Shown here: in pieces, positions 1,715 through 57,718 of the stretch
How the letters are laid out: each line of letters opens with the position of its first letter
How positions within the stretch are numbered: position 1 is the stretch's first letter
Assembly (NCBI GenBank): GCA_002269645.1
Contig: NIVC01000293.1
Coordinates: 248,001 to 312,000 of the forward strand
Reading direction: 5' to 3'
DNA from: Macrostomum lignano
Lineage: Eukaryota
Length of the DNA: 64,000 nucleotides
Translations under genes and position numbers: made by a program
The notes under the pieces: model-generated
Seen by the model: only the letters and a program-made list of their open reading frames with translations
Database searches by the model: none
Told to the model about the DNA's origin: nothing

Positions 1715-4700
1715 CAAGATACATGAGTTGGCTTATCAGAGGGTCAGTGTTATTTATGAACAGATTAAAGTCTTTTTAGTATATAAAATTTAATAGTGTT
1801 ATTTATTTTATTATTTTATACTTTTTAATATGACTAGGCTTTTCTTATAGAATAATGAATGGGAATTAATTTATATAAAAATGAGAATATAGTTGCCAAA
1901 CCTGTTAGGCCCATAAAATTCTATGCTGTTATAAAAGAAACAGATCCTTGGCCAATTTTTTTGTTTTGCTACAACTGCAATCTTCAATTTTGTGCTAAAT
2001 GTAAAGAACTGACATATGGCCAGTTTCTCCCACACATTTTTTAGAGTGGAATTAAGTTTTTCTATTAAAATGTCAATAGTGTCAACAACTGTATTCTAGA
2101 TAATTAGCAACAAACTATGTTTTTAAGTAAAAATTTTTATACTGGGAGAGCAGTTTTCCTCAAACACCAACTTTATTCCAACTTTCTTAATATTTTAACA
2201 TAAGGTACCTTGTTTTCCGCAGAGATTTATCCACATAGGCCACAAATAAAATGCTGTAAATATGAAGCTTGGTTAAAAACACATGGACAATTTTGCTTAT
2301 TAGTGAGCATGGAAATGAGTATTATCTAGTTAACTCTAATTGAAAGATTTTATTTGGTTCTTTATTTAGGCCTAGCCATGCTAGAAAAAGAATGGCTTAA
2401 AGTAAAAGAATATGATCAATATGAATTTATGACACTACAAATTAGAGTCCAATTTGAATAGTAAGATTTGCGACGCCAGTTGGAGGCTATAGAAGAGTGC
2501 TCATCATTGGGGCACATAAGACTCGCAGTGAACGCCTTTCAGGTCTATAGTCACAAAACCAAGTGTCAGGTTAGTGGTCAAGTTTAGCATTTAAATGATG
2601 CTGGATCTGCCTTTATTTGCATCTTAATAATAATTACATAATAATTTATAACTAAATGTGTTGTTTCTGTGCCTGTCTATACAAAATTATAAATTCTAAT
2701 ATGCAAGCATAAATAAAAGCATAAAAGGTATAAACATGTTTTATGCAAATATATAAGAGCCTCATCTTCAAGTGACACTTGACACCAACAAGATTCTACA
2801 AACCAGTCAGATGGTTGTTCTCAAGGGTGCAGTATCCCCGAAGGCTAGGGGAATCCTTCTAAGTTTTGTGACTGGGTCAGACCACGTTTTTAGTAATAAA
2901 AATTCATCACTCTCTAGGCCCTACACATGATGCGTGACAATTTCATAGCAGGTAGTTGAAATTGTGGTGATAGGTAACTTTGAAGTGAAGTTTTAATAAT
3001 TGGGTTGATTGTGTAGCCTTTATATTTAATTTATAAGCTCAAGAGATGTAAGTTTTTATGAAAGAACCTTTACATACGAGTACATTTAAATTAAAGGTTT
3101 CTTTTTTGAATGCTCAAAAATCAATAAATATTCTTTGCTCTTTAAGCTTTACAATTCTGTGCAAGTTGTCAATGGATACAGCCTAATTGACAGTGAACAT
3201 TGCGAACGCGTCAATGCTTTGCTTCATCCATATGGCCCACAACTGAAGGAGATGCGTTTGGACAGGCACACTTTTTTCTAGCCTATATTATTAGGCATCT
3301 AAATGTGTCCCATTTCCTTAAATCTGGTAAGCATGTGTGGCAGTCGAGTGCCACTGATGAAAACTTAATGAAACAATTACGCTAAGTTGCATGTGTTGCA
3401 TTTGGGGCTGCCACTAATGAACTTTAATATTTTAGTTTCTAAATTTAATATTATTTTACGTGACTTATTGGGTGCGTTCGAGTGACTTAAAATGACTTAA
3501 ACTGCCATTTTAACGTCCTTAGTAAAACAAATGTTAAGCAGACTAAATGTAAAAATAATCTAGGTAAATGATAGTCAAATTACAATTAAGAATTAATTCA
3601 ATTTCTAAAACCGGTCTAAGATTAAAAAACCACACCTATACTTCTTCCAACTCAACCTGAACGCCTAGGCACCGTTTTAACTTCGCTCGCAATTACCACA
3701 TTTGGGTCGTTCTCAAATTCTGGGAGGAGCGAAAATTTTAACAATTTTCCGAACATTTACTATTGTTACTGCCGTATTGAAAATAATAGGACACTTTCAT
3801 CTGTGAATAAAGATAATTTTTGGGTTGAAATTTATGTTGCAAAAGTGTTTTAAGTTGTCTTGCGGTATTAGGCGATATTAGGTGATGAAAAAATTCAAAT
3901 TCAATCACTTCACCGATGTCCTAATTTTTGACACTATGATGTCTGTAGCTAAAAAAAGTTGTTCTTGTGTTGAAAATTTCTACATGACATTAAAAACGAA
4001 AGCTTATATAAAATTAATTCTATAAATTTTTCAGACATGTAAACTGCACTATAAACGATTTTATAGACGCCTAACTGTACGCCTAGCCTTCCCGGTTGTA
4101 AAGCCACTTTGTGTCACACGTAATGTATTTTTTTGGCTTATGCCTAGAATGAGTGCTTAAAATGATACATCTTGATACAGATAATTAGAAAAGCATGTCT
4201 CATTATCTTTTAAAAAAATTCGTGAAGTAGAGCACTAATTGTTGACAAAAATATTTAAAAGCAACCATACATCATATAAAACCCTATTTTGAAGCACAAG
4301 ATAAATTTCTTGTAACCACTCTAGCGTTCTGCATGGAGCACTTTCTGAGCTGAAATTTTACACAGATATCTAGTGGAGCGAAATGAGCAAATGATTTTTT
4401 TTTGTTTTTGAAAATATTTCAATTTGGCTATGTATCAGTAGTTTATTTGACAAATTTATTATATTTTTATTAAAAATCCTTGTAACCAAGCTACAGAGGA
4501 ACATGTTCAAAACTGGACCGTGAAATTTGACCTGAATGATCAGCAAACGTGTATCTCGAAATGATTTTTTTGTTTACAACAAAGACATATTTTTTTAACA
4601 TTTTATGGCCAAGTATTAAAAACAATAACAGAAAATAAACGTAACATTTCTTGGAACCAAAACAGAAACACATATATTTAAAATTTCAACTTGGAAAATA

Positions 4701-5374
4701 TATTTTAGATACTTTATACTGATAGCAAAAATGTTTTTTTTGTTTTTTTCTGAAAACTACAGATTTTTATAACACTTTATATGATACAATATCATAAAAG
4801 CATATGTTTTCCTGAAACCAATAATGGCATAAAAATATTTAAATTATGAAGCCTAAAATTTACTCCAAGTTAGTTATAAAATCTAGTAGAAAACGTACTT
4901 TTTCTTTTAGTCGTTATATTTTGTTTTTTTACCTTTAATTAATACCATATCACGATTTTACCTATTCATTTTTCTATAAAATAGACAATTGACTCCATGA
5001 AATAATTATTTGGAATCAAATTCTATTTAGAATGTAATGTAACGATATATACCGATTTTTTTCGGTATATCCGAAGATCGATTTCGGAAAAAATCGGTAC
5101 ATGTCATTATTGTACCCTTTTGACTTCCCTTGTCTATGGCCCAGACATAGTGCGGATGCTGAGTATGAAATGCGATTGTTGCCGGAATGCGCTTTGAAAG
5201 GGTTGTAGAGATAATCAATCGTCTATGGCAAATTTAGTTGCTCTCTAAATGAAAGGGTTGTAGAGATAATTAATCGTTTATGGCAAATTTAAAGGACAGT
5301 GAAGACAGCTAGCCTGGCTGCCATGAGTTAATTCTCAAGTTGATTTTGAGCTTGAATTAATTCTCCTATTCGGA

Positions 5375-5851
5375 GTGCAAATAGGAAAAGTAGCTATGAT
5401 TCGCTACGCAAACATTCCTGGCGGAGAAATATGTGGACTCTCCACGGACGAGTTGGCTTTTGTCACCCGAGAGTCGAGCACGCGCTACGTTCTGGAGATG
5501 GACAACCTGGATGCGTCGTCCAGTTCCAACGGGCTGCCTGAGCTAGGTAGCGAAGATCTGGAAATGTTGGACCGACTTGAGAGTGACTCAGTGCCGAAAT
5601 CGACCGAGACGCAACGGAAGCTTCACGTGGCAAGGTTCCGACAGTTCCTCAACGAGAAGGGGCTCTGCCAGGAGTTTGAGCGTGTTCCGGATCGATTTTT
5701 GAACGATTATCTGAGGCTTTTCTATTCATCCCTTCGAAAGCAGGATGGAACTTACTATGCGCCAAAGTCTCTCATCTGTTTTCGTGCGGCTATTCAACGC
5801 CACATTCGTCTGAAATCCGGCAACAATCGAAAAAAGCCGACAAACAATTAA
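5375..5851 (+). pseudogene. Truncated Crypton/tyrosine-recombinase-like (DUF3504/KCTD1-QRICH1-type N-terminal) fragment
   Basis: Translation ...SVPKSTETQRKLHVARFRQFL...LNDYLRLFYSSLRKQDGTYYAPKSLICFRAAIQRHI resembles the Crypton core-binding domain. It stops before the catalytic region. Confidence 0.65.
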
Positions 5852-6055
5852 ATTGTTACCGCAAGTATGAATGCCGGAAACCATAGACAAAAGGGAACAA
5901 TATGACATTAATCCACATATTTCTGTTACCAAAATAAAAAGGTTACCAACAAGTAAAAGTTCACGAACATGAAAAGGATAGGAGAAATCTTAATCATTGG
6001 GTATTTGGGTGAAAACCCTAGCTATAAAAAGTAAAAACATAGTACCATAACCATA

Positions 6056-8155
6056 ATGCACTTTCAGGCTCCCTTTGCTCCAAGCAAACGACAGAAGCGG
6101 CGAGAGAAGAAAGAGAGACACATTATTAAAAAATTCGGTGACCACGAGAAGTATCTTGAGCAGCAGCGCCAACAACATAATGAGAGGTATCAGAAAAGGA
6201 AGGCAGCAGAGAAAATTGAAGGTCAAGTGGGACCAGCTGTTTCAGTTGTGAGGTCAGCAGCTGCTTACAAGCGCGAAAACAACAAGTTGAAGCAAAAGAA
6301 CGCAGCTCTCACCAATCAGTTACAGTCGAGCAATAAAAGAAACGAAGCCGCAAACAGACGCAATGACACTTTGCGCAAGCAACTAAGTCGAGTAAAAAAG
6401 GAAACAGAAAAACAGAAGGTTGAACGTCGTGTTGAATCGAGTGCTGCTAGCTATCTCACTCGAAAATTTGCTGCGCTTCGGCGCTTCAAAAGCACTCGAG
6501 AGATAATTAAGTCAATTGTGCAAGATGCTGACCCCTCTGATCAGAGGGCAGTGATGAAACTAGTCGCATCTTCGCCAAAAGTATTGAGGCAGCCAAAAGC
6601 AAAACCGGCAAATAAAGTCAAAGATTCTGTTCAGAAGTTCTTCTGCCTGGATGAGAACTCCCGATTAACCTCATCAACGAAGGATTTCATTAAGAAAAGG
6701 GTTCGCACCGACGCTAAGACTGTAATTCTGCTGCAGGCGCAGAAGCGTTACCTGATGTGGCCCGTGAATGTAATATACGATAAGTTCCGCGAAGAGAACC
6801 CGGATATTAAGACACCAAGTCGGGCTACGTTTAACCGATGGAAGCCTTGGTTTGTCAAGAGACCTCGACTGAGTGACCGCGATCTCTGCATGTGCATGAC
6901 ATGCAACAACGTGGACGGGCTAGTTGCTGGCATGCACACTGCGGGTTTAGTACGCAGCCATCAAGTGAAAGACCTGCTGCAAGAGATTGTCTGCTCCGAA
7001 AATTCGCCTGCCTGCCTTACACGTCAGTGTGACTCCTGTCGAGAGCTATCACCATTGACAGACGTAGTCCATGAGAAGCCACATGTTTCTTATCGTGTTT
7101 GGCGGCCACGGTCCGATGGTAGAAGTGGTGTCGATCATCTCAGAGAGACAGCGTCATGCGAGATGGCTGTGAGTATGCTCCAACGGCAATTGAATGATTA
7201 CGCAACCCACTACATGCGCTTGTGTCATCAATTTAAGGCCATCCGCATTTTGAAGGAATCGCTGCAGCCTGGACACCTCATACTGCATATAGACTTTTCC
7301 GAGAATTTTAATGCGAAATATCACACTGAGGTGCAGGCAGCACATTTTGGTGACCAAGAGCAGGTTATCATCCATCAAGGAGTTGGCCACCTGAAAGGTT
7401 TCGACCCGTGTTCCTTTGTTACAGTCTCGGCAGAGAAGCGTAAGACGGCCGAAGCCATTGCTGCCCATCTGAAACCAGTTCTGAAGCATTTTAAGCAGGT
7501 GTATGATGCTTCAATGGGTTCTGACTGCTTTGAGGAGTTGCACCATGTAACTGTCATCTCCGACTCTCCTTCAAGTCAGTATAGGAATCGGAAAATGCTT
7601 TTCCTTTTCGACCGACTGATGAAGAGCTTCAATGTCGAGAGTTGGCGATGGCTCTACACAGAAGCCGGACACGGAAAGGGATCTGCAGACGGGGTTGGCG
7701 CCTGTGTTAAAAGCCGTTGCAACGATGTGGTGGCCGCCCGAAGAGACATCATTACTCCACAGGATGTTCTGGTTGCTGTAAGAGCCAGCCCTCCATTGCG
7801 CGTACTTAGCTGGTTAGTGGAGGAAAGCGATTTTACGGAGTTCATTGATCTTGTCAACTTTATTGGCAATGACCTCTGCGAGATGCCGGGACTAATGAAG
7901 ACGCACGATGTCTCAAGAGAGGAAGGAGGCCCAATTATCTATCGTCAGCTGTCTTGCATTTGCGAAGGTGCGACAGCAGCTTGCAAGTGCAACAATGCAA
8001 AGACGTGGATTCCATTGGTCCTTCCATCGATCGAAGATACAGCAGTAGGCCGTGGTCGTAGTCGAGGGTATAGACGAGGCCGGGCACGTGGACGAGGAAG
8101 AGGATTTGGTCGAGGATGTGGACGGCAGCCGCAGCAAGATGATCGGGAATTATAG
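6056..8155 (+). CDS. Sola2-like DDE/D transposase (699 aa, uninterrupted)
   Basis: Motifs HIDFSENF, VISDSPSSQYRN and TEAGHGKGSADGVG are present, plus a Cys-rich segment. The ORF lies between the Sola TIRs. Confidence 0.8.
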   Translation: MHFQAPFAPSKRQKRREKKERHIIKKFGDHEKYLEQQRQQHNERYQKRKAAEKIEGQVGPAVSVVRSAAAYKRENNKLKQKNAALTNQLQSSNKRNEAANRRNDTLRKQLSRVKKETEKQKVERRVESSAASYLTRKFAALRRFKSTREIIKSIVQDADPSDQRAVMKLVASSPKVLRQPKAKPANKVKDSVQKFFCLDENSRLTSSTKDFIKKRVRTDAKTVILLQAQKRYLMWPVNVIYDKFREENPDIKTPSRATFNRWKPWFVKRPRLSDRDLCMCMTCNNVDGLVAGMHTAGLVRSHQVKDLLQEIVCSENSPACLTRQCDSCRELSPLTDVVHEKPHVSYRVWRPRSDGRSGVDHLRETASCEMAVSMLQRQLNDYATHYMRLCHQFKAIRILKESLQPGHLILHIDFSENFNAKYHTEVQAAHFGDQEQVIIHQGVGHLKGFDPCSFVTVSAEKRKTAEAIAAHLKPVLKHFKQVYDASMGSDCFEELHHVTVISDSPSSQYRNRKMLFLFDRLMKSFNVESWRWLYTEAGHGKGSADGVGACVKSRCNDVVAARRDIITPQDVLVAVRASPPLRVLSWLVEESDFTEFIDLVNFIGNDLCEMPGLMKTHDVSREEGGPIIYRQLSCICEGATAACKCNNAKTWIPLVLPSIEDTAVGRGRSRGYRRGRARGRGRGFGRGCGRQPQQDDREL

Positions 8156-9149
8156 TTAAAAGTAAATAAGTAAATTTACGACTCCATTTATTATTTATTC
8201 AACTGAGATCTACCATCAGAAGAAAACACTATATGTAAGATGTATATGACCTTTTATGATAAGAACACAGCTGTACATGTAGTATATTTTGTGCCAACTT
8301 TCTTACAAACAAAATAATTTCACTTTAAATCGATGATTGTAAGAAGATGGGAAGCCTTGTAGAAGTATGTTCAGACTTGTTGTAGTCGAGTTCCTATCTC
8401 TCTAGCTCAATGGAAGATCCTGATAAAACAAGCTGAATAGTAGAAGTGTAGGACATTGTACGATCTGATATTATCAGTGTTGTATCCGCCCTTTCTTCGG
8501 CCTGTATCGGCTGATGCACTGCTTGGTTGATGTCGCAAATGGCGAAGCTAAAACAGTCATCTCAGTTAGACGGATGAATTGACCGGATACGGTCCTCTCG
8601 GCTGGAGGGTCCCTTGGGGAGCTATGTTTAATCCGGAATGGCATAACTTTCCGCTAGAAAGTTAGAATCAGAAGAAAGACTTGTGAGGATTTTTGGGCAA
8701 AATATTCCTCGTTTTTATAGCCGTCTACGAACTTTTGACTCTCTCTCTCTGATAGGCCTCCAGGAATCTGATGTCACGCATCTGTTCTAAAAATAGACAT
8801 GACCCAGGGAAAAAAATGAGGATTTGGAGGGGTGGGGTGTTCAGGTAGAGTGCAGAGTGACATCACTGTAGATAGACAGGGAGCACTGGCAGGGGAGTGA
8901 TGGGGCGAGAGAGAGGCCGAGAGGTAAGGAGCTGCGCTCTGGCCTGTCGGCGCCCAGACTGTAGTTACATCATCAGTAGTGAAAAAAGGTAGTGAAAAAG
9001 TATAATCCAGAAAAAAACGTTTTCGATATTCATAGCAATGTTTTTAAATCATTTTCTGATTGTGTAAAGATACCTAAAAGCTGTCTATAGAATGAATTCA
9101 TTATTTATTTGGATCATTTACCTATAAATGGCATCAAAACTTAAGCACA

Positions 9150-9283
9150 AAATATAACAAACATATTACATTTAGAAAAAAAGTTTGAGGAAAATCGGTC
9201 CAGCCAATTTTGCTAAAATCGATCACACACACATACACACAGACATGCAAACATATACCAACAGACCATTTTTAGTATTGGGA
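9150..9283 (-). mobile_element. 5' end of a non-autonomous Helitron-like element
   Basis: The minus strand reads A|TCCCAATACTAAAA...(gt)n...GGACCGATTTT, the same layout as the Helitron 5' end at 49473. No 3' end was found. Confidence 0.4.
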
Positions 9284-9295
9284 TAAGTTTTTTTT

Positions 9296-9700
9296 TTAAT
9301 TTTGAATACTAATTTACCATGCAATATAAATTATTTCTGAGTTCAGATTGCTAATCATGAAATGAAATATTTTGTTCATAACAAATTTGCTTATATGCAA
9401 CTGTATGCTTATATGGTTTTTTGTTTATTTGCCTTTTTTCTTCTTTCTTTTTGGTCTATTTAACCTTTAATACATATTAAAATGGCATTGGAAAGAAAAT
9501 GGCAAATGGCAAGAAAAAATGAGTTTATTAAATTTTGAATAGTAGTGCAACATGCAATATAATTTATTTCTGAGTTCAGATTGCCAATCATGAAATGAAA
9601 TATTCTGTTCATAACAAATTCACTTCTGTGCAACTGTAATGCTTATATGGTTTTTTGTTTCTTTGCCTTTCTTCTTTCTTTTTTGTCTATTTAACCTTTT
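9296..9700 (+). repeat. Imperfect ~175-bp direct duplication
   Basis: catgcaatataa...tctgagttcagattg...tatatggttttttg occurs at about 9296-9470 and 9532-9697. Confidence 0.75.
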
Positions 9701-11267
9701 TTGCATTTTGCTTTCCTGAAATAGGCTTTTAGAGTGTAATGATGGCATTATAATTACTTATGACTAGATACAAGCGTATACATCTTAAAGTCATACATAT
9801 ATAATAATAATAAAAATTGTAATTGAGGATGTCAGAACTAAAGGCATGATGCATGAAAAGATGTGTTGATGATCAATGACGATCATTGACTAAATAAGTT
9901 ATTTTGACATGAATTTGACTGCAAAATCATGAAAGAAACCAATTTCTGTCTGATAATTTCTAAATAAATGAAAATAGTAATAATCTACAATTTTTGAATA
10001 GATTTTTTTTAAATAAAAGAGAAACTACTTCTGGCGAAGAATAGAGAAAGTTATTTTTAGTATAATTAATAGAGATTTAGTATCTAGGGTAGAAATAAAT
10101 TTCATTTACATTTCGTTTATACAAAATAGAAAACTATACGATGCCTTAAGTACATCGAATCGTATCGTAAGTCCATGCCATGTGAGAACTGATCGTTATA
10201 CCCGTTTCAGTCATTACCACATGGTTGGCCTTAGACAAGCGTAGCTATGTTGAAAAAAACTGTACCATGTGTTTGAAGACGAAAGCGTGCGCTGTAAACA
10301 ATTTAATAGGAAAAACAAAACTTTTGAATTTAAAATACATAACTGCATAACATATTTTCATTTTACAACATTTAATTCAGTATTTAGTAGTTTTCTGTTA
10401 ATTTTGCACAATTTTTTTCTGTTTAGGTCTGATGTTTTTAATCGTCAACATAGCCGGTGATACAAAAAAACAAACACGGATATGAGACACCCAGAAACAT
10501 TTCTTGTGGTTCTCAACCTATTTTAGCAATCTAAATTTAAAGTGTAATAATAATTAGTAATTTAGTATTCCAACAAATAAGCTTTTTTAAATATCACTTT
10601 TTGTAGTCTTAAATTTGAGAATGACCCATTTAATCGTAATTGAATATTTTGTATTCTTCACCTTTGTTCTATCATTTGCTTTCACGTCCTTTTGCTCAGT
10701 TCGCTGCCCGTCATTATAGTCCTTGAATAATTGCTTAGTACTAATATTGTTTATTTATTAATTGTTATTACATAGTAGTTTATTTGGACTTGGAATATAG
10801 TCACTATTATTGTTGCTACTGTTATTATTTTTCTATTGGAGTTTTGTACTTTTTCAGCTTGGTTCTTATTCTTCAATATAGTATCTGAGTGAACTTCATG
10901 TTATAGTTTTGTCTTTCTATTTATTCCGTAGCTATTGTAATACCAAGGAATTATTCACTTCGGTTAAATCATATTATTTTATTGCTATCTGGCCTATTTT
11001 TTTCTTAATGAATAGTTGACTGACTTACCTTGTTTTTTATTCTTTTGCTTGTTTGAATATAGTAATTAGCTCCTTATTTATTATCTTTATTGATCACAGT
11101 CAACTTATATAAACAAAAAAAAATATTTCTTTCAAATATACCTCTGCATCAATAAGTTTCATATATTTTTTGTATTTTGTGCCAATCTCTGTAAATTTGT
11201 TTACAGTTTCTCTTGTTGCATATACTCATTTTTTGCAAGTAGTGTTAATCTGCACCGCTGGATAACA

Positions 11268-13151
11268 ATGCCTGTATTTGATGTTTTCATAGAAAATGGT
11301 GGACAATTGTGTAGGCTTCTTGTGGAGTCGACTAATTACGACACCGCCGTGCAGTATTTGGTCGGAGGTAGGCAACTTTTTGTTTCTGAAATGACTACTA
11401 TATAGATTATCTGAGTAGATGCTGCTATATAGATGCTGCCCCTTCGTACATGTAGTTGAATATATCCTGCTTGCATACACCCAGCAACTGCAACGCAAGA
11501 TAATGGATTGCTGAGGCTAACACTGAAAGATGTTGAGACAACAACTCGAATTGTCGATGTTTTTGATAACATCGATGACTCTCGCATTCCATTTGCGACT
11601 AATGAGTTTCAACGTCAAGGTACTGTTCGACTCACATCGGTTCATGTGATGTTCAGTTCATAGCATTCGCGTTACCATTTGCCAGTTTCAAATGGCAGCA
11701 TGAATTAAATGATTTCTCGTTGATCTTCTGTTTCAACTGTTTAAATATGAAATACTTGTTCTGCTCTACATATATAGCCTTATGCAAAAGAGCTACTGCG
11801 TATGTGTGCTTTGTGGACATATTGGATTGCAATCAGTGTACTTTTTTAGCATCAGTCTATCAACTAATTCAACCTTATTTTCTCAGCGCAGTGCCGAGGT
11901 CACGAAGAGCATCCGGTTTGGTCACAGTGCCATGCTCGAGAAGAGCAACCGGCCAAGTCACAAGGCAGGACGAGGAATTAATTCCGACAAAGTTGCATCA
12001 AACATGGGGACTTGCAGAGAGGGAGGCCTTTCTGAAGCTTGCCATTGAGCACAATCTAAAGCAATTGGATGGTGTTCGTCCGGCCGAAAAGTATGACACC
12101 ATAGCCCGCGAGATGCGTGAAATGGGCTTCTATCGTGAAGTCTCGCAGTTGAAGGCTCAATGGTACAATGAGAGGAACAGATTCTGGTACGCACGATCGA
12201 ATGGGGCTGCAGTTGCAGATGTAATTTAAAAAAATTGTTGCTGATAAAGTTTACTCAACTTTTGTGTTGCATTTCAATGAATAATTTCAATAGGCAGTTC
12301 AAGCATCCTCCAACTGGTCTCTCTAGAGGAGAGTGTGACTATCCATTTGCGACTATGATGGACGAATACATGGGAGATAGCCCATTGATTCGTCCGCGCG
12401 TGCTAATAGCTTCGACCTCGACATCCCTCGGCAGCACAGCCCAGAGTCAGTCATCGGAACGAGTTAACCGGTCTCCAGCTACAAAGAAAAGTGCCGGTAA
12501 GATTATTTTATCTTTGACATGAGGTTATGTGATCTATCGCTGTTTGGTCATTATTTCTGTGGGTTACATACAGATACGCAAGCAAAAATTTTTGCATTTA
12601 TAGATCCTCGCATTAGTGCATGTCGACAGTGGCAAGCTTTGCTGTCGGACGAGGAGAGAGATCACGCAAGTACAGCTCGTGTGGAACAAGGTGGTCCAAC
12701 AGCAACAGCTCCTACAGGTATACATGTAAGTTCTTGGTCAAATATTTTAATACCCTTGAAATATGGATCATGTTCATGTACACGAGAGTGCGCATTCTAT
12801 TCTAATTCGAATTTTCAGACATCTAGGAAAAGAAGGAGTGGTGCATCCGAATTGGTGCAAACCATTCGGGGGTTTCAAGATTCTACGACCACGGCGATCT
12901 TGCGTGTAACCTCTCGCGCCACAGAAGTCGAAATGTCTAACAAGGAGTTGATGTCTGGTCTACTTGACCGCATTACTCGTGTAGAGGAAACCCAGCTAGA
13001 AATTCAGCGTGAGAGAATCGCTGTAGAACGACAGCGTTTGGAAAATGAACGACACGCTTTGGAAGTGAGAGAGAAAGAGGTGGAACTGATGAATAGGCAC
13101 GGACTACTTAATTGTCGTTTATATAGGACGCGACACGCACGATTCGTGTAA
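11268..13151 (+). CDS. Harbinger accessory Myb/SANT (trihelix) DNA-binding protein with coiled-coil tail, spliced
   Basis: Exon TWGLAEREAFLKL...KYDTIAREMREMGFYREVSQLKAQWYNER. GT-AG introns occur near 12220, 12498 and 12717. The C-terminus is RKRR plus an E/R-rich coil. The 5' exons are inferred. Confidence 0.75.
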
Positions 13152-14410
13152 TTTTTTTTGGAGGCTGAATTTCTCATTAGCGTATACTGCAGCATACATT
13201 GAAATATTCTTATCATTGAATGCAGATCATTTTTCAGAGTGTTTTCGTATTTTTTCCAATTTTTTACCACTATATAATGTTGGTCTAGCTTAGTATTGTT
13301 TAACAATGTCTGGAGACTTCGTTTATATATCTATTATGTATAGCTGGTAGGCCTAAGCTAGGCCTGGTATGAAGACCTATAGCTATACTATGCAAGATAT
13401 ACCTACATTGTCTAGTTATAGGCCCTAGCTAGCTACTGTTTAGTTTAGCATTACCATTGGCATTAGTTAGTAAGTCTATAGGCTATATTGCTTGCTCTTT
13501 GTTTTATGGATTATAGATTATAGATTATGGACTAGGCCCCTATGGATTATAGATAGGATAGGCTAGAATAATAATTTTATAGTCATATATAGGTTGATTA
13601 ATTACATACTGATCTTAATAATGAGATTAATAAATAGCATGTAGGCCTATATATGTAGCATAAATTATAAGCTATAATTATCAACATAGGCCTATAAATT
13701 TATTGGCTCTAGGCCTACTAATATTTATTTTAGCATATATTAACTATATATTAATATATTTTTTGCTAACTTACATTATACTTATAGCTTATATTATAAA
13801 ATAAATGTAAATATAACTCTGAATAGGAATTTAGAATTATTAATACATTTTATGTATCCAGTTTTCTAATTTTTAGTCTTTTAGATTAGATTCTACATTT
13901 TGCCAATTGTAGACTCAAGACTCTACTTATTTTATATCTATAATAGTCTAAAAAGCTATCAAATTATATGATTAAGCCTAAACAAAACTTTACTAGGGCC
14001 TAATGATAGGTTTTGTTATATCATAACTTTAATAGGGGCTTATCATGAAATCTATCCAGAGTTTGGTTCTAAAATTGTTGATTGGCTTATATTTAATAAT
14101 AGATTAAAAGCTTTATTAAACTCTATGATTAACTCTACTCTACATTATAGTCATTTTCTTTCTTTTTTAGAATTGTCTTGCTTAAGCAATTAAACAAAGA
14201 TATATATATTTGTATGATTTGATATAGGCCTACTTATATATGTTATGTTTATTGAATCTATAATGCATTAATATTTTTGCTATTTAACTTATATACATTC
14301 AAAATTATAATATTACATTTTATATTCTTTCAGAGGCATGTAGGGCCTACCCTGTTTTTGTCAATGTTTCTATTAAGTTAATATATAGAATTTGGTATCA
14401 ATTTTTTGTT

Positions 14411-17273
14411 ATGCCACGGAAGTGTTGTATACCACTTTGCAAGTCCAACTATGATGCTGGTCCTAAAGCTGTAGTATATAGATTTCCATCAGACAAAGAT
14501 GAGTTTAGACGTTGGTTAGGTGCACTTCCATCACAAGTCAAGGTAAGAAAATAGTTTGTTATAATTTTTATATTATATAGGCTATATGCCAAAAGGAAAT
14601 CTATCAATATTTTCCTTTTATTCATGTAGAATGTTACAAGGCACATGGGAATTTGTGACAAACATTGGCCTCATGATGCTCCACGTATAAAGATTAAGCG
14701 TTTCTTTCGACCAGTAGGACCACCTTCAATATTCTCTTTGCCTACAAGTTCTATTCGCCAGACATTTCCAGGTAATAGGCTTTAAATTTGCATAAGTCTA
14801 TTTAGGTATAATGTCTCAATTAGTCAATTATTTAATATATTTCTTTCTTTACTTTAATAGTCACTTCTAGACAATCTGCACATCGTGGCATTCTGTGTGG
14901 TCAACGCAATAAGCTTGCTGATGAAATAGATGCCTTCAATGCCAAGGACAGAATTCAGAATTGGGAGACATTTATTAGCCATATAATGCAGAATCTATTA
15001 CCTACAATGCCTGGCTGGCTATTGCAAAGAGAAGAAAGTTATGTACAATTGCTTTCTATTTGTCAACGCAATGTTGAATTTTCTGTTACTGTGGATTCCA
15101 ACTTTAAAATAGCAGCTTTTCGAAGAAACACTGAAGTCAAGACATCAGACCTCCTTGGTTTCCAAAACCATTTAGAACGCTTTTCCCAGCTTGAAGCTAT
15201 CATCAATAGAGTGAAGCAGACTGATCTGTCAATCAAAGATGAAATCTCAGCCCATGTCAAGGACTTGCAGTCAGTTTGCAGTGATGCTGGGGCTACCAAG
15301 CAGCAATTCCTTCTTAGACAGCTACAACTTAGTACATATGAGTCATCTTCAATGCGGTACACATTTGAGGACATCCTGTTGTCTGCTCGCATGTTTTTCT
15401 CTGGACGAGCTGGCTATTGTGCAGCAAGAGGTATTTTGACATTGCCACACCCAGTTACTCTAAAGCGCTATTTTGGTGGACTGGGCACAGTTGGGACTGA
15501 TGCTGATTGCCAGAAGCTAGTTGAAGCACAGTTATCTGCAGCCACACAATCTCAAAAGTGTTGCTCCATTATATTTGATGAAGTGTATGTCCCGCCCTCG
15601 CTACGACTTCGTGGAGGTCACATCATTGGCTATTCAGAGGATGACCCAGCAAAGTTGGCTCGCACAGTTTTGGCCATAATGGTAAAACCTTTAATGGGTG
15701 CCATACCTTATGTTGCTCGACTTGTGCCTATCTACAGTCTTAAGCCACACTTTTTGTACGAACAAATCGCACGACTCATTTCTATTATTCATAATTGTGG
15801 TGGAGTAGTCATCAGTTTGATCTGTGACAACCATTTCACGAATCGTAACTGCTTTGAATTGTTCAGTCCTGATCCTGCAACACCATGGAAGGCTGCTAAT
15901 CCAGCAGATCCTACACAGCCACTATTTCTGCTGTATGACACAGTTCACTTGATTAAAAACATTCGCAATAATTGGCTCACCCAGTCACATGGTGAAATTG
16001 ACTTCCAACTACCAGGTGAACATGGAAGTTCTCGTGCTAAATGGAGCCACATTGTTGACATTGAAGTTCGCAGTCGATCGCACATCATCCGTCCAACTAC
16101 ATTGACTTCTGTTTCGTGTTGTCCCACGCCACTTGAGCGGCAAAAAGTCAGTCTTGTCCTTGATGTGTTTAGTGAGAAGACTGTAGCTGCATTGCAAGTC
16201 GTAAGACATGTGGATACTGCCAATTTCGTTGCCAAAGTGGTAGATTTTTGGAAGATCGTAAATGTCAAAACACCGGATGCGCATGTATTGCTCAATGATA
16301 TTAGAAGAACACCAATATCCTCACCAGATGCTGCTAATTTACATGTTCTACTCAACTTTGCTTCCATAATTGGTCGAATGGCAGGTGGACGTGGTCCCTG
16401 CCGCCCGCGTTCCTTGACTACAGAGACCCAGAAAGCTGTTGTCCAAACATCGAGGGGTCTCGTTGAGATGTCACAGTATCTACTATCTCACTTCCAATTT
16501 AAATATGTCATGCTAGGTATGAATAGTATTAGGCATTAACTTGCTTAATCTAGGTAATGTATCTCTTAATGTTTATGCTATTAGCTATTTTTCTTATCCT
16601 TTTTTCAGGTGACTTTCAATCGGATCGGCTGGAGAAGGAATTCTCTATCTATAGGCAAGGCCATGGAGGTTGCTATTTCGTATCCGTGGAACAAATACTT
16701 ATGAGTGCTCGACTTCGTCGCATGCAAGTGTACGCACGTCTTAAGGAGGATTCTCCAGAACATGAGCGATCTGACTGTTGCGACAATGAAGCGTCTGAGG
16801 CTGAACTGTTACAACTGGATGGCCTATGTGCCAATATGGAATGTATTTCGGAGGAAGAGAAAGTAACGTTGTACTACATTTGCGGATACGTGGCGCGCAA
16901 AGAAGTCATCGTTGATGACCTGGATTGTGAGGTTTCCGATGAATGCGCAATTGGCGACAGCGAGTTCACGAATCTGCTCTCGCGCGGTAAGCTCCGGCAC
17001 CCCCCTAAATGGCTTCTAGTATTTGCGTCTTTGTGCTATGCTCTCTTTATAAAGGCAAATCTGACTTGTGTCAATCGTGCACGAAAGTTTTTTTCCCTTG
17101 TCTTCGATTCATATATGGATGTTGCCAAATGTGCTGACGTTAGTGTAGGTCGAATTTCAAAACGCTTTGCGAATGTCTTTTTTAAAGGACTTGTGCGTCG
17201 CGAATCAGTTGCATCCCGTGTAACCCCAAATGCCGATGCGCGCAGACTTCGCAAACTCTCCAATCCTATGTAA
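14411..17273 (+). CDS. THAP-domain P-element-type transposase, 4 exons, apparently intact
   Basis: MPRKCCIPLC...YRFP...W...CDKHW is a THAP finger. Core motifs are IIFDEVYV, ICDN, YDTVHLIKNIRNNW and GDFQSDRLEKEFSIYRQ. Canonical introns lie at ~14543-14630, ~14772-14860 and ~16518-16608. Confidence 0.88.
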
Positions 17274-17295
17274 TATTAATAAAAATTGACATTCA

Positions 17296-19810: not shown

Positions 19811-20542
19811 AATATATAAATTAATAACTAGTAATGTCCAATGACAATGAATGAGAGCTAATTACTATATTCAAACAAGCAAAAGAATAAAAAACAAGGC
19901 AAGTCAGTCAACAATACATTGAGAAAAAAATAGGCCAGTTAGCAATAAAATAATATGATTCAACCAAAGTGAATAATTCCTTTGTATGATAGAAAGACAA
20001 TACTATAGAAAACTATAGATACTATATTATAGAATACAATATACAATACTATACTATAGAATAAATAGAAAGACAAAACTATAACATGAAGTTCACTCAG
20101 ATACTATATTGAAGAATAAGAACCAAGCTGAAATAGTGACTATATTCCAAGTCCAAATAAACTACTACGTAATAACAATTAATAAATAAACAATATTAGT
20201 ACTAAGCAATTATTCAAAGACTATTATGACGGGCAGCGAACTGAGCAAAAAGACGTGAAAGCAAATGATAGAACAAAGGTGAAGAATACAAAATATACAA
20301 TTACGATAAATGTGGTAATTGCGAGCGAAGTTAAAACGGTGCCTAGGCGTTCAGGTTGAGTTGGAAGAAGTATAGGCGACGTTTTTTTAATCTTAGACCG
20401 GTTTTAGAAATTGAATTAATTCTTAATTGTAATTTGACTATCATTTACCTAGATTATTTTTACATTTAGTCTGCTTAACATTTGTTTTACTAAGGACGTT
20501 AAAATGGCAGTTTAAGTCATTTTAAGTCACTCGAACGCACCC
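19712..20542 (-). repeat. Right long TIR of the Harbinger (~830 bp)
   Basis: Inverted match to 3470-3703 + 10632-11111. Confidence 0.85.
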
Positions 20543-20544
20543 AT

Positions 20545-21563
20545 TGTGGTAGGGCGCACTACCACGTTTGGTACAGGTGACCTCACCGCAATGACTCTCG
20601 CGTTCTGTGTCACCCGTTGCGCCGTCCCATGTCCCATCCCTCGCCCCATCTTTTGCCGTCGCGCGTAATTTTTTGTTATTCTCATTCCCGGCTTTGATGT
20701 CGTCCGATGCCCATCCTTCGCCCCATCTCCTGCCCCATCCTTCGCCTTCCTGCCCCATCTGCTGCTCCATCCCCGTCCGGATGACATCGCCCCACTATTT
20801 ATTAAGGCCATTTAGGGCCGCAAGTTTTCATCCTTCCTTTCCCCTGCCTCCTACTTGTTCGTTTTCCGTTCCGTTCCGCTTCGTGTACCCTCGTGTACTC
20901 GTCTGTTTAGTGTTTAATTTCCTGTTGTGCTCGAAGTTAAATTAGTACTTATTTAGTCTCGATCTACTAGTTTGTTCAGTTAGTCGTCCCACCCGGCACC
21001 GGCCGAGGATCAATCGTCTGAATTCAACTTTATTTTGCCAATTTACGCCTGCTAGTACAACATGAATAAATAATATTAATTAACTAATAATTAAGTCTAT
21101 CTCGTTAACGAAGCCCATAATAGTTATCTTGAGTCATTTGCCCGTGGGGCGTTAAACAACCGAATCGATCTCAACTCTAAGCGAGCTCTGAGATCCCAAC
21201 GTTCCGTAATACGGATCAAATTACGGTGGTGGCAGCGCTACTCTACGGACAGTAATCAGTACGACAATTCAAAAGCAGATTTACGGTGTCAAGACCAATT
21301 GAGTCTACGGATCTGAACGACCGGGCCGCTATACGACCGCTCCGCTACGATTACAACTACCCTCCCCCCGGACTTGAGAACCCGGCTGTCGGAGTAAAAC
21401 AGGAGAAGAAATTTCGTTGTGATTCGTCTGCGCGTTTTTCCGGTTTTTATTCGTGCGAACTCAACGCCGGCGGCAATTCAAACGAGGAATCCGCCCCACC
21501 TCACTGGTGTCAGCAAATTCAAAAACAACCGTTCTAAGAAAGTTCTTCTCCACCCCCACCTCA
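20545..21563 (+). mobile_element. Solo LTR 'A', inserted in LTR B
   Basis: TGTGGTAGGGCG...CGCCCCACCTCA form an imperfect terminal IR. TSD is TTAT (3465-3468 / 21564-21567, across the Harbinger). It has a TATA-like box near 20797, AATAAA, and an internal CA+PBS at 21503-21513. Confidence 0.9.
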
Positions 21564-26531: not shown

Positions 26532-27561
26532 TGTGGTAGGGCGCACTACCAAGTTTGGAACAGGTGACCTCACCGTAATGACTCTCGCGTTCTGTGTCAC
26601 CCGATGCGCCGTCCCATGTCCCATCCCTCGCCCCATCTTTTGCCGTCGCGCGTAATTTTTTGTTATTCTCTTTCCCGGCTTTGTTGTCGTCCGATGCCCC
26701 ATCCTTCGTCCCATCTCCTGCCCCATCCTTCGCCTTCCTGCCCCATCTGCTGCCCCATCCCCGTCCGGACGACATCGCCCCACTATTTATTAAGGCCATT
26801 TCGGGTCCGCAAGTTTTCATTCTTCCCCCTTTCCCTGCCTCCTACTTGTTCGTTTGTCCGTTTTCCGTTTCCGTTCCGCTTCGTGTACCCTCGTGTACTC
26901 GTCTGTTTAGTGTTGAGTTTCTTTTGTGCTCAAAGTTAAATTAGTACTTATTTAGTCTCGATCTACTAGTTTGTTTAGTTAGTCGTTCGCACCCGGCACC
27001 GGCCGAGGATCAATCGTCTGAATTCAACTTTATTTTGCCAATTTACGCCTGCTAATACAGCATCAATAAATAATATTAATTAACTAATAATTAAGTCTGT
27101 CCCGTTAACGAAGCGCATAATAGTTTATCTTGAGTTATTTGCCCGTGGGGCGTTAAACAACCGAATCGATCTCAACTCTAAGCGAGCTCTGAGATCCCAA
27201 CGTTCCGTAATACGAATTAAATTACGGTGGTGGCAGCGCTAATCTACGGACAGTAATCAGTACGACAATTCAAAAGCAGATTTACGGTGTCTAGACCAAT
27301 TGAGTCTACGGATCTGAACGACCGGGCCGCTATACGACCGCTCCGCACGATTACAACTACCCTCCCCCGGACTTGAGGACCCGGCAGTCGGAGTATTTGG
27401 AGAAAGCTTCGTTGAGTTTCGTCTGCGCGACATTTCCGGATTTAACTCGTGCGAACTCAACATCGGCGGAAATTCAAACGCGGAATCCGCCCAACTCATT
27501 GGTGACAGCGAATCAAGTTCAAACCGAGTAAGCAACCAAATTACTTTCTCCCCCCACCTCA
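26532..27561 (+). mobile_element. Solo LTR 'A2' (same subfamily as A)
   Basis: TGTGGTAGG...CCCCACCTCA with TSD GTAA (26528-26531 / 27562-27565). The internal PBS variant is TGGTGACAGCG at 27500. Confidence 0.9.
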
Positions 27562-27784: not shown

Positions 27785-28778
27785 TGTGGCAGTTGGGTTG
27801 CCACCGTTTAATAATTATATTTTTAAATGCGTGCCATTAATTTTTCGTGAATACTAACCCGTGCGGCCAATCGTTGTAATATGACCTCACCCCTCCTTTT
27901 GTTGGCCCCATGTGTGGACCCACTGTTGCTATTCGTTTTCCCATTGATGGTTAACAGTCTTTTCACTGATTGAAATTTAAGCGATTTTGTATATATTTCG
28001 GTTATAATTTTTCATTAACCATTGCATGGCCCCCTTGTTGGTTAATTTTGCCCCCATGCATTGGTTGTTACCTTACTATTTGCTTATATAACTACTCATG
28101 CTCAGTTGTCTCTCTCTAGTTTTTGGGGAAATCTCTCGCTCTCTCTACTGCTACAGCTACCCTCGCGCTATCTCGTTTGATCTTATTAGTTTATTAGCGC
28201 ACCGGCGCCAGTGAAGTTATCCGTCAATAAATTTTACTTTAATCCATAAATAACCTGCGAAAACTAATAATAATAATTGCTTTAATAAATAACGACAATT
28301 TAACATTTAATATTTATTCCGTTGACTTAAGCCATAGCCTATATTGAATCCTTTGCCCGTGGGGCGTAAAACAACCGAAGTCTCATCTCAAGGAAAGCTC
28401 TGAGACCATTAAACGTTCCGTAATACGTAAATTACGGTGGTGGCAGCAACTACCCTACTGACAGTAACAAGCTCAGCAAACCGACAAAAGATTACTACGG
28501 TGTCAAATCTACCCCGGTGTTTCTACAACTGAACGACCGTGCCGCTCTAGGACCGCTCCGCTACGATTACAACTACCCTCCCCCAGGAACTTGAGGACCC
28601 CGGCTGTCGGAGTAAAAGGAGAAGATTTTCGTTGTGATTCGTCTGCGCGATTTTACGGCTTCATTCGTGTTTCATCAACGCCGGTGGCAATTCAAACGAG
28701 GAATCCGCGCAACCTCTGGTGTCAGCAAATTTTCAAAACCCAAGAATTCCAAGAAGAGTCTTCTCCACCCCCACCTCA
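27785..28778 (+). mobile_element. Solo LTR 'D'
   Basis: TGTGGCAG...CCCCACCTCA with TSD AATT (27781-27784 / 28779-28782). An internal TGGTGTCAGC is at 28717. Confidence 0.9.
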
Positions 28779-30100: not shown

Positions 30101-30109
30101 ACAATGGCC

Positions 30110-31789: not shown

Positions 31790-32808
31790 TGTGGCAGTGG
31801 GGTTGCCACCATTTAATAATATTTTAATAATTTTTCTATTTTTAATTGCGTGCCATCTTTTAGTAAGTTTCCAACTCTTGCGGCCAACGGCAGACGGTGA
31901 CCTCACCCTTTTCCCCCCGGTTGGCCCCGTGTTTGGACCATTGGTTGTTATAGATATTTTCCTTAGTTGGTCAATATAAATTTTCATCGGTTGAGTTTTA
32001 ATAATTTTATGTGTATTTTTGCGGCTTTTGTTTTATAACCTGAGTGTGGACCCGTGTGTGGCCCCGGTGTTGATAAGTCCTGGCCCCACACCTGGGAGTT
32101 TAATAATTTCATTGTATAAATAAGTGTGTTTTCGGTTGAATTTCTTCACTCTCTCTTTTTCTTCCCCCCGTTTTTTGTTTTCCGTTTTCGTTTCCGTTGT
32201 TCTCGCCCGCGCTTGTGTTTTCGTGTTTTTCAGTTCCAGTTTAATTCATCCTTAGTTTATTAGCGCACCGGCGCCCACGAACTCATTTTCGTCTGTAGCT
32301 TAATTTTCTTAACAATAATAACCTGCTTGAATTAGTAACTTTCTTTGCGTTAATAATAAACAGACAATCAATTAATCAGTTAATACTTATCCAGTTAATA
32401 TAAGCCATAGCCTATCTTGAATCCTTTGCCCGTGGGGCGTAAAATAACCAATCAGTCTCAACTCAAAGAAAGCTCTGAGACCATTAAACGTTCCGTAATA
32501 CGTAAATTACGGTGGTGGCAGCAACTACCCTACCAAAAGTAACGAGTTCAACACTTCGACGCATTATTTTACGGAGGCAGAAACTCCGGAGTTCCTACAA
32601 CTGAACGACCGTGCCGCTCTACGACCGCTCCGCTACGATTACAACTACCCTCCCCCCGGACTTGAGAACCCGGCAGTCGGAGTAAAAGGAGAAAAATTTC
32701 GTTGTGATTCGTCTGCGCAATTTTCCGGTTTTAACGCTACCGGTTTCGAAGAAATTACCGGCCGACCTCCAATATCAAATTTTGTTTTATCCTCTCCACC
32801 CCACCTCA
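31790..32808 (+). mobile_element. Solo LTR 'D2'
   Basis: TGTGGCAG...CCCCACCTCA with TSD AAAT (31786-31789 / 32809-32812). It lacks the internal CA+PBS block. Confidence 0.9.
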
Positions 32809-32865
32809 AAATGTCAAAAGTTGGTGGGTGTGTATAAAATTTGGCAACGGACACTGGCATACTGG

Positions 32866-35015
32866 TGTGGCAGTTGGGGCTGCTGTGGCAGGTGGCTGCT
32901 CCTGGTTTTTAAAAATATTTATTTATTAGCAGTTTATTAACTTTTGAAATTGATGTTTCACGTCAAGTGTACGTTTCCCAAGCCGTTATTTCGTTTCCCC
33001 TTGAAGGGATAGTTTTCCGTAATTTTGTCACGCACCCCATCCCGCTATGGGATTTCTTTGATCTCCACCCCGTGTAAATTGTTTTCCCTCCGTTTGCCTC
33101 CTTGCTTATCCCGTTTAATTTTATGCTTTTTCATTACTTCGCCGCCGCTGGACCAGACGCGTTAATGTAAATCTCCTTATTCTGGTCCAGAAGCGATTTT
33201 TTGCTCACTTTTGCTTATATATGTGTGTTTTTATGTTTTGTGTTTTTGCTCGCGCTCTCGCTCTTTCTCTCTCTCTCCCGTTGTGTTTGTTTGTTTTTAG
33301 TTTTGTTTAGTTCACCTTTGTCTTGCCTATCTTTAGTTTGGTTAAGTTTTGTCAATTTTTCACTTGTCTAGTTAAATAGTCGTCGCACCGCGGCACGCCG
33401 AATTCATCGTCGTCAATAAGTAATTTATCAATTTATCCTGCTCAAGCTAATAAATAAAGAATAATATCCCGCCAATTTATTAATATTTTATTCGTTGACA
33501 TTAAGCCATAGCCTATCTTGAGTCTTTTGCCCGTGGGGCGTTAAATAACCAAGTTTTCTCAGCTCAAGAAAGCTCAGAGACTTATTCGTTCCGTAATACG
33601 TAAATTACGGTAGTGGCAGCTCTACCCTACTGAAAGTAACCAGCTCAGCAACTCTACACATTGATTTAACGGTGTCTAAATCCCCGGTGTTTCATCACTT
33701 TGAACGACCGCGCCGTTACACGACCGCTCCGCTACGATTGCGACTACCCTCCCCCCGGACTTGAGAACCCGGCTGTCGGAGTAAAATGAGAAAGATCACG
33801 TTGTGATTCGTCTGCGCGAATTTTCCGGCTTCACTCGTGCGAACTCAACGTCGGCGGCAATTCAAACGTGGAATCCGCCCCACCACATTGGTGTCAGCAA
33901 ATTTCAAACCAAACCCAAGCGAAGAAAAAATTCTTTCTCCACCCCCACCTCACTGCCACTAACAGTTAATGAAACGTTTTCTCTAAATTTTGAAATTTAA
34001 AATTTTTTTCGACGCTCATTAAACCACCCCGTGACCATTCTTCGCTGTCCCCAGTTTTTGGCCCTGTGTGTCCACCCTGTGTTCCCAGTTGTTGGTATAT
34101 TTCGTCATTTTTCCCCGTTCTTGTGATGGTTGTCCCACACCTTTCTCCGGCCTTTTGCGTCCCTCTTTTGGTAACTTTGTTTAATTCCCTATGTTTTCCA
34201 TGTTAAGTTTTCTGTTCTTTGCTTGGTCCCCGTGACCACCTTTTGCCTCCAGTGTTTGACCCCAATAGTCCATTCGTTGCGTTTTTAATCCCTATTTAAT
34301 GGTGCCCCTGGAGCTGCGCATTTTTCATGCCGTTTTTTCCTCCCGATTTCATCCCTTTTCCTTTTCCTTTGCCGGCCCTTAGTCTTTGCCTTGCCTTGCC
34401 CATTCAATTCAACTATTAATATTTAATTCCGCCCAATTTATTACGACGAGTGTTTAGTTCGTTAGTTCGTTTAGCTATCCAGTAGTGCACCGCGGCACCA
34501 GCCGAATCAATCCGCCGGAGTAGGCTCGGTCGACATCTATTATTATTATACTCTTAGCTAATTTCGCACGCTCGCCAATCTATTCTGCTGACTGAGCAAA
34601 TTATTATCTTACCGCTCATAAGCTCTAATAAAACAGTTGATCCGCCATTAATTTCGTTAAATAAACTGAAGCCTAGCATATTTTGAGTCATTTGCCCGTG
34701 GGGCGTAAAATAACCCAGTCTCATCTCGAAGCAAGCTTTGAGACTTCAACGTTCCGTAATACGTAAATTACGGTGGTGGCAGCGCTACTCTACTGTTAGT
34801 AAAAAGTCAAACATACGAGGTACATTAAGTTTCGGTGTCTGAGGACCCGCTCTGAACGCTCGCGCCTAACGAAGACCGCTTGCCTACGACTGAGACTACC
34901 CTCCCCCCGGAATTGAGGACCCCGGCAGACGGAGTATCTACGAGACTTCTAAATTGGGATTCGTCCACGCAATTTCCGGATTTAATCTGTGCGAATGAAC
35001 GACGGCGCCGATTCG
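32866..35015 (+). mobile_element. LTR 'B2' (32866-32883 + 33957-~35015), 3'-truncated
   Basis: Starts TGTGGCAGTTGGGGCTGC. U3 aligns with LTR B and the family core is at 34685. Similarity ends where the MULE remnant begins. Confidence 0.82.
32884..33952 (+). mobile_element. Solo LTR 'E', inserted 18 bp inside B2
   Basis: TGTGGCAGG...CCCCACCTCA with TSD CTGC (32880-32883 / 33953-33956). An internal CCACCACA-t-TGGTGTCAGC is at 33880-33898. Confidence 0.9.

Positions 35016-57687: not shown

Positions 57688-57718
<31 letters not shown>

Follow-up and report, generated by a model that had tools for sequence, protein, structure and literature searches.

The window analyzed here, a 64-kb stretch of the Macrostomum lignano genome, contains eight long terminal repeats (LTRs) of one retrotransposon family, every one of which sequence inspection places on the + strand. 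Solo LTR C is split: its first 58 bp, the start of U3 with its hairpin, lie at 3336..3393, and the rest is found at 22576-23372 and 24517-24665, where C ends; C is flanked on either side by the target site duplication (TSD) CATG. An uninterrupted sister copy, L240, aligns across the break. Solo LTR B is nested at +58 of C, with its first 75 bp at 3394..3468 and the rest at 21568-22571, and the TSD, again CATG, is present on both sides (3390-3393 and 22572-22575). Solo LTR A (20545..21563) is nested at +75 of B, with the TSD TTAT at 3465-3468 and 21564-21567, and its right flank is a B-type LTR from position 75-81 onward. The initial annotation had placed A at +75 of B; the position and the TSD bear this out, but the two LTRs do not physically adjoin, because a 17-kb PIF/Harbinger DNA transposon (3470..20542, no strand assigned; TSD ATT) lies between them at the B/A junction. 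The transposon has inverted repeats at 3469-3703 and 20308-20543 (98% identity), carries a DDE_Tnp_4 open reading frame (ORF) at 18659-19861 plus a Myb/SANT ORF, and is host to further transposons. An unrelated LTR-type element (23373-24512; TSD CCTG) splits U5 of C, and self-BLAST of the C remainder gave the split 23068-23369 / 24516-24665.

Three further solo LTRs are un-nested, specifically A2 (26532..27561; TSD GTAA), D (27785..28778; TSD AATT), which lies 223 bp past A2, and D2 (31790..32808; TSD AAAT), which ends 57 bp upstream of the left end of B2. LTR B2, the right end of which is not intact, is interrupted after its first 18 bp (32866..32883, with the rest at 33957 to about 35075) by solo LTR E (32884..33952). 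E sits inside the hairpin of B2 and has the TSD CTGC at 32880-32883 and 33953-33956. The claimed positions of B at +58 of C and of E at +18 of B2 were both confirmed by their 4-bp TSDs. The hairpin of B is mutated in the window copy. Contigs from public runs span the C/B junction (X1, 3336-3457) as well as the D2-B2-E junctions and the right junction of E (X5, X6), and these junctions are therefore not assembly errors. The C/B junction also recurs in a second copy of the window locus (G000:C1178), where a different insert lies 5 bp from the site of A and B is struck at +71, compared with +75 in the window.

The repeats are ~1-kb solo LTRs (TG..CA, 4-bp TSDs) of a young Ty3/Gypsy family that lacks env; about 750 copies of the repeat exist. 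Gag and pol ORFs were found between one LTR pair, and the Pfam order in pol is PR (148-241), RT (488-648), RNase H (716-849) and integrase (1184-1354). By RT-RNase H, the nearest named relatives are the M. lignano proteins P0007 and P0008 (58-60% identity), and the one 1617-aa pol frame scanned gave no match to the chromodomain that chromovirus-type Gypsy elements carry at the integrase C terminus. The LTRs of 10 pairs compared were 94-100% identical, 9 of them at 98.7% or more. An exact 4-bp TSD surrounds a solo LTR at 100 of 260 right ends, and 29 of the 260 are followed by TGGTG, a tRNA primer-binding motif that we take to match tRNA-Leu. The sense of gag-pol and the primer-binding site beyond the right end identify the left end as U3, and the 4-bp TSDs mark the nested events as integrase products, as the initial annotation had held on both counts. 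Helitron-like, DIRS-like and reverse-orientation readings were dropped, since full-length copies show gag-pol in the + sense. No polypurine tract was evident at 18 of 20 3'-LTR junction types, a few of which may be misassigned; these have at most 60% purine in the last 15 bp and are mostly C-rich. U3 is highly diverse, with 52-57 left-end types.

Across the genome we curated 32 distinct family-in-family insertions, counting duplicates once in a redundant assembly that holds one event in up to 6 copies. The insertions cluster at a few loci and are not fully independent. Twenty-nine of the 32 lie within the first 75 bp of the ~1,000-bp LTR, and 31 of the 32 share the orientation of the host copy, which upholds both the position and the orientation first seen in the window. 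In a position-blind subset the share at ≤75 bp is 24/25, and outside the window it is 21/22. Local sequence, modelled as a weight matrix of 78 free sites, would put 7.9% of insertions in the first 75 bp (maximum, 18%); for 21/22, p is about 6e-15 even if 18%, the figure kindest to a local-sequence effect, is taken as expected. Local base composition was rejected as an explanation. The hot spot is a zone and not one site, extending from +5 to +95 with a median of +39, and +39 was struck in two different C-type hosts, each by a different insert. The exceptions are one reversed insertion (+142) and two further in (+95 and +283). The LTR interior and right end are cold, with 0/32 insertions within the last 100 bp; among 456 right ends, adjacent same-strand pairs numbered 0 at 100-878 bp and 14 at 879-1143 bp. 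A genome-wide search for reversed right ends lying no more than about 220 bp from an intact left end gave 0 matches, and six close opposite-strand pairs that were fetched (C1205, C3811, C1950, C957, C891 and C504) are not reversed nests.

Both junctions with a 4-bp duplication were recovered for 20 events (one with a single mismatch), and 11 of the 31 same-orientation events are visible at one junction only. Neither the 5' LTR paired with the C730 event nor the far junctions at C414, C1190 and C2473 turned up when we searched for them. A composite LTR mobile as a unit was dropped for the six-copy +52 event, the flanks of which are common to the copies. By eye, no insert with a visible left end has the left-end type of its host (chance, 5%); homology guidance is therefore not needed and was dropped. 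Same-orientation neighbours trail off upstream of the left end. Distances of at most 75 bp versus 76-340 bp are divided 18 to 1 inside the LTR and 7 to 9 upstream (Fisher p 0.002), so it is the LTR body that defines the boundary. Nearest-neighbour identity proved unfit for dating: in calibration it ranked the insert as younger in only ~9/16 nested pairs, so that the order of arrival of tandem neighbours is not assignable.

The insertion zone comprises the hairpin and a spacer (+20 to +60, 66% AT), up to a pyrimidine-rich block with CRE/AP-1-like motifs that starts at +60 to +100, with C-runs from +60. The motif TGACVTCA occurs in 13/52 U3 types versus 0.3 in shuffled sequence. A universal CRE-like anchor was nevertheless rejected: the motif is missing from 39/52 types, lies within 400 bp downstream at only 7/19 nested junctions and is not enriched by free sites (2 left and 2 right of 78). 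Because TATA-like boxes are positioned from about +275 inward, the enhancer, TATA, R and U5 stay joined after nesting. The initial proposal that insertion displaces the resident promoter was thus overstated; what is cut off is the spent left attachment end. A second hot spot, with 9 independent insertions, lies at the end of a MITE without such a hairpin, and the MITE and U3 have no obvious common motif. We dropped the idea of one MITE ferrying an LTR around, as the LTRs there are 78-81% alike and the outer flanks differ.

The initial annotation attributed the pattern to an integrase guided by the left-end hairpin. Retroviral integrases show a stem-loop target preference. A weak palindrome preference is also described for plant elements (PMC6911290). 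Direct recognition of the family left end or hairpin, as an attachment-end mimic or extruded cruciform beside which the integrase inserts, would fit the conservation of the hairpin, which shows compensatory change (19 C-G and 17 T-A arm pairs among 52 types) and marks about 845 left ends genome-wide versus 88 in the control. Nine of the 31 same-orientation inserts fall at +5 to +20, in or at the hairpin, which would fit recognition but also means that the hairpin itself is hit. The right end, however, is also an attachment end and took none of the 32 insertions within its last 100 bp, the insertions reach +95, the MITE hot spot is hairpin-free, most family copies are un-nested, and a symmetric hairpin leaves a polarity of 31 to 1 unexplained. 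The hairpin may have another job, in plus-strand priming, because the 3' LTRs are mostly without a purine-rich tract. Hairpin guidance was therefore not supported, and we regard direct recognition as unlikely. Elements of other families also use this edge. The same Harbinger family struck +60 (L224) and +75 (window), MITE inserts lie at about +4 and +33, and another LTR element lies at +50. Together with the AT-rich spacer, this would suit a left edge that is open chromatin for any transposon, with the orientation bias arising from later loss of inverted copies. Non-family insertions lie at ≤75 bp in 5/19 cases, a mild enrichment (5 of 18 tested, p 0.008) that points to plain accessibility and counts against both a hairpin guide and a tether. 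The family bias is far above that of the other elements (Fisher p 3e-6). Moreover, nested pairs join different subfamilies with unrelated U3s, and arms ~80% alike and >1 kb apart would be a weak substrate for loss of inverted copies. One reversed copy survives, as do three close neighbours in opposite orientation. We consider this explanation decidedly unlikely.

An outside landmark on the U3 side, comparable to the tRNA genes used by Ty1, Ty3 and DGLT-A, could instead draw oriented insertions. Multi-hit cascades at C293, C947, C3372, C730, C414 and C262, a hand tally of the neighbours within 340 bp (16 tandem, 3 opposite) and the 8/8 same-facing copies of the window are in keeping with such a landmark. 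Against it, a search of the window found no tRNA gene, and the U3-side flanks of the 78 free sites gave no convincing common repeat, motif or compositional asymmetry. The nested and upstream distances are asymmetric, and cascades extend to 129-133 bp, measured from the outer flank, whereas 18/19 first-level inserts lie within 65 bp. When cascades were simulated, an anchor carried by the LTR fitted no differently from one outside it (p 0.023 versus 0.014-0.16). On balance an outside landmark seems improbable. Recombination between copies or assembly error could produce a nested appearance, given the redundant assembly, the single-junction events and two loci, L249 and L239, that look rearranged. 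However, host and insert belong to different subfamilies, and the TSDs and bridging contigs largely refute this reading, which we hold to be extremely improbable.

We give an even chance to our preferred interpretation, in which a tether underlies the hot spot that the family has for integrating, near-always in host orientation, into the first 75-95 bp of LTRs of its own kind already in place. A candidate host factor would bind the U3 enhancer/promoter of the resident LTR, and would hold the integration complex immediately upstream and set its orientation. On this view self-targeting would be a by-product: the LTR would carry a binding site for the factor that tethers the element in general. 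This would explain both the second hot spot at the MITE end and the location of about 90% of family copies elsewhere. A related, self-directed route, evolved by the family, in which the integration complex recognises resident family LTRs and attaches, always facing one way, immediately upstream of the enhancer, is possible but doubtful.

Known systems offer partial parallels in the portions of the sources available. The Ty3/Gypsy elements Tf1/Tf2 of Schizosaccharomyces pombe choose targets via a host DNA-binding factor with a site in their own LTRs; this factor, Sap1, guides Tf1, and targeting depends on the orientation of its site (PMC5371812). That text reports no comparably tight, polar cluster of insertions at the start (first 75 bp) of resident Tf1/Tf2 LTRs, and it describes Sap1 as a fission-yeast protein (PMC5371812), whereas the factor in the M. 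lignano family is a candidate only. The Pol III-gene-targeted elements Ty1, Ty3 and DGLT-A insert upstream of promoters to which a factor is bound, within a short interval (13-33 bp in DGLT-A; PMC5371812, PMC5633606); for the M. lignano family, with no tRNA gene in the window, the landmark appears to be the U3 of its own LTR. DIRS-1 of Dictyostelium discoideum likewise prefers its own existing copies, but it uses a tyrosine recombinase with no apparent sequence preference within the element (PMC5633606), in contrast to the rve DDE integrase, direct LTRs, 4-bp TSDs and positional zone found here. Elements of the DIRS-1 type have inverted LTRs and leave no TSD. Plant Ty3/Gypsy elements make "autoinsertions", nesting preferentially in their own family and in preferred regions, but they favour the 3' UTR and do not often target LTRs (PMC6911290), unlike the U3 start and near-strict orientation in M. 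lignano. A paper on M. lignano Ty3/Gypsy (Mdg4) families deals with heat-shock activation, and the word "nested" is absent from the main text (PMC12801592).

Our literature search found no earlier account of such U3-start self-nesting; if self-directed, it would be the first case found of a DDE-integrase retrotransposon that targets itself in a position- and strand-specific way. To our knowledge, target choice by animal Ty3/Gypsy integrases is understood mainly from a few models. A polar hot spot of <100 bp, roughly thousand-fold, gives defined DNA for finding the tethering factor, and its pattern is opposite to that in plants, where LTRs are avoided. If the self-directed route is true, old copies would serve as safe landing sites on which head-to-tail LTR cascades are built. 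Insertion ahead of an old copy's enhancer would leave host genes unharmed and keep the 5' LTR promoter working, and left-end nesting offers a route to tandem LTR cascades and chimeric U3 regions.

Self-BLAST and motif scans of the window identified eight repeats of ~1 kb, named A, B, C, D, A2, B2, D2 and E, all on the + strand between 3336 and about 35075, with the left end TGTGG, the right end CCACCTCA in seven of the eight, and 4-bp target duplications. Where two copies pair at a distance of 8-9.5 kb, gag and a PR-RT-RNase H-integrase frame with the copies' own orientation lie between them, and a primer-binding motif follows the 5' copy; this identifies the window repeats as solo LTRs belonging to a Ty3/Gypsy family, with U3 at their left end. 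No match to env or a chromodomain was seen in the frames scanned. Downstream of the integrase, full-length copies carry a third frame (about 285-316 aa; L033:3054-3911 and L035:2874-3824 in two of the retrieved family loci), for which a Pfam scan gave no match. Among named proteins, the nearest relatives in RT-RNase H come from Macrostomum lignano (58-60% identity), and 9/10 LTR pairs compared were 98.7-100% identical, indicating that the family is young. In the 764-Mb assembly scanned, where the window is G000:C293:248001-312000, hairpin-type left ends number about 845, compared with 88 for a control pattern.

The initial annotation had proposed that family members insert into the first 15-75 bp of each other's U3, and its three nested sites were recovered with duplications: counted from the left end of the host LTR, B lies at +58 in C (CATG), A at +75 in B (TTAT) and E at +18 in B2 (CTGC). 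Contigs of public runs from three studies, one possibly the assembly's own source, bridge the C/B, D2-B2-E and E/B2 junctions. At the B/A junction exactly, a 17-kb Harbinger (window 3470-20542) was inserted later; its left inverted repeat carries a 6.9-kb insertion with a 706-aa transposase-like ORF (6035-8155) that has no Pfam match, and a P-element-like ORF lies at 14836-17273. A second copy of this locus on G000:C1178 (79556-90000; L383 and L384), 97% identical, has C and B in common with the window, but its B is interrupted at +71 by a different LTR, and A and the Harbinger are absent there. Position +39 was hit in two different C-type hosts by inserts of different subfamilies, and nesting cascades reach four deep (contigs C3372 and C262). 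The window also holds an unrelated LTR-type element (23373-24512) with a 4-bp target duplication and, about 80 bp short of its end, an apparent LTR end plus PBS, tandem repeats with a unit of about 177 bp (25261-25898), and, at 52705-62789, putatively Helitron-like replication/helicase frames, with duplicated segments at 54050-56628, 58526-59228 and 62107-64000.

For a genome-wide count, family right ends were found by sequence pattern, with 100 of 167, 291, 104 and 174 matches taken for four of the patterns and tighter patterns supplying some of the rest, and tandem arrays and unlike variants were removed by eye. Among the at least 456 ends kept, at least 14 pairs of adjacent same-strand ends (9 distinct) lay 879-1143 bp apart, and no pair among the matches listed lay 100-878 bp apart, a range that uniform nesting would have filled. 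A position-blind set comprised 260 right ends with flanks (208 distinct non-PBS junctions) and 26 further loci picked in contig order once the hypothesis was fixed. With duplicated loci counted once, it yielded 25 family-in-family events, one of them (+50) spotted only through adjoining another; all 25 were in host orientation and 24 lay at +5 to +75, the remaining one at +283. Outside the window, 21/22 were at ≤75 bp, and the 26 further loci contributed four nested cases, at +28, +45 (a duplicate), +46 and +71. A weight matrix built from 78 free sites predicted 7.9% of insertions in the first 75 bp and at most 18% for any copy; even against 18%, the observed 24/25 gives p of about 4e-17, although the p-values overstate independence, the events being concentrated at about 14 loci. 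A direct scan for two left ends in succession, no more than about 75 bp apart, from which three rows of an unrelated repeat were left out, gave 15 distinct true events, compared with one (+95) at 76-350 bp. A genome pattern scan for right ends in reverse orientation, up to about 220 bp from a left end, found none, a mutated end at +142 having escaped it. Direct scans added seven events (+12, +16, +37, +39, +59, +95 and a reversed one at +142), for a curated total of 32, of which 29 lie at ≤75 bp and 31 share the host orientation (median, +39); both junctions were seen in 20 and one in 12. The left-edge position and shared orientation first noticed in the window held genome-wide, and local base composition does not account for the position.

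Nested copies made up about 22/230 sampled junctions, a share inflated by targeted fetches, 4/26 in blind batches and 0/30 in the first 30 pattern loci. With about 56 kb of target, a share of roughly 5-10% still corresponds, as a rough estimate, to an enrichment of order 1000. The family has a second hot spot in a Harbinger-type MITE of 265 bp, whose left 27-mer has 411 exact matches: the first 70 bp from its left end took nine independent family insertions (L043, L068, L100, L349, L035/L036, L239, L285, L187 and L430), of which six share one ATAT; seven face one way and two the opposite way. Several family LTRs and a MITE, in both orientations, cluster to within about 20 bp of a single site in another repeat (flanks of L047, L054, L019 and L100). 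At L060 and L255 (G000:C105, C283 and C4881), one subfamily's LTR matches the start of another's from about +281 onward, which may be a fixed chimera dating from an old nesting event.

In the 52 U3 types compared, a hairpin whose arms show compensatory changes occupies the first 20 bp; AT makes up 66% of +20 to +60, and from +60 to +80 onward comes a pyrimidine-rich block, the hot window stopping at its start. TGACVTCA occurs in 13/52 types, against 0.3 in shuffles, and the 26 types with a TATA-like box within the searched range have it at +274 or beyond. The initial annotation had also supposed that nesting would displace the resident promoter from its attachment site; since the TATA region and R-U5 remain joined, the promoter would be kept when a 5' or solo LTR is hit. 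At the 3' LTR junction, a C-rich stretch in place of a polypurine tract is found in most full-length copies (for example L008, L044 and L102), directly followed by the U3 hairpin, which may therefore have a role in plus-strand priming instead. U5 of most family LTRs (in the window, 21495-21520) contains an internal sequence closely resembling the LTR right end, with a PBS-like motif, about 60 bp short of the true end; a second PBS-like motif lies farther upstream.

The nested insertions are integrase-made and polar, fall within a window of 75-95 bp and do not need homology; the LTR interior is cold. That these observations are an artefact is very improbable. The reading we favor, with about an even chance of being correct, is that a host factor sitting on the U3 enhancer/promoter of the resident LTR would tether the integration complex and set its orientation; the complex would take the nearest open DNA upstream, and local sequence would pick the exact base. 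Direct reading of the left end or its hairpin, close to the guidance originally suggested, is unlikely: the majority of copies are unnested, the MITE is also a hot spot, nine family inserts cut the hairpin itself, none of the curated nested events hit the LTR right end from inside, and non-family elements favor the same edge, all of which count against a simple self-guide. That last excess (5/19 non-family insertions in family LTRs at ≤75 bp, several of the 19 judged from one junction; p of 0.008 on 18) is in line with plain accessibility, to which a loss of inverted copies would be added, but the family's bias is far stronger than that of non-family elements (Fisher p of 3e-6), and we consider this account slightly less likely still. 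An anchor outside the LTR predicts symmetry about the left end. By hand tally, same-orientation neighbors upstream of left ends numbered seven at ≤75 bp and nine at 76-340 bp (opposite ones, three), whereas outermost hosts had 18 inserts inside at ≤75 bp and one farther (Fisher p of 0.002); no shared landmark was found in the flanks of 78 free sites, nor a tRNA gene in the window, and such an anchor is improbable.

Plant autoinsertions favor the 3' UTR and LTRs are not commonly targeted (PMC6911290), whereas the family described here hits the U3 start of its own LTR. In the Tf1/Sap1 system, the Tf LTR has a Sap1 site (PMC5371812); PMC5633606 treats self-insertion of DIRS-1 and also DGLT-A, and PMC5932611 treats tandems arising by double insertion, while passages of PMC10085805 held nothing that bears on the pattern. 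Full-text searches of main texts, mostly outside subscription journals and judged mainly from the listed records, turned up no description of polar insertion of a family into its own U3 starts, and the family may be named in the supplements of PMC12801592. The pattern is real and strong and apparently undescribed so far; it is a case of retrotransposon target selection for which a tethering mechanism is proposed.
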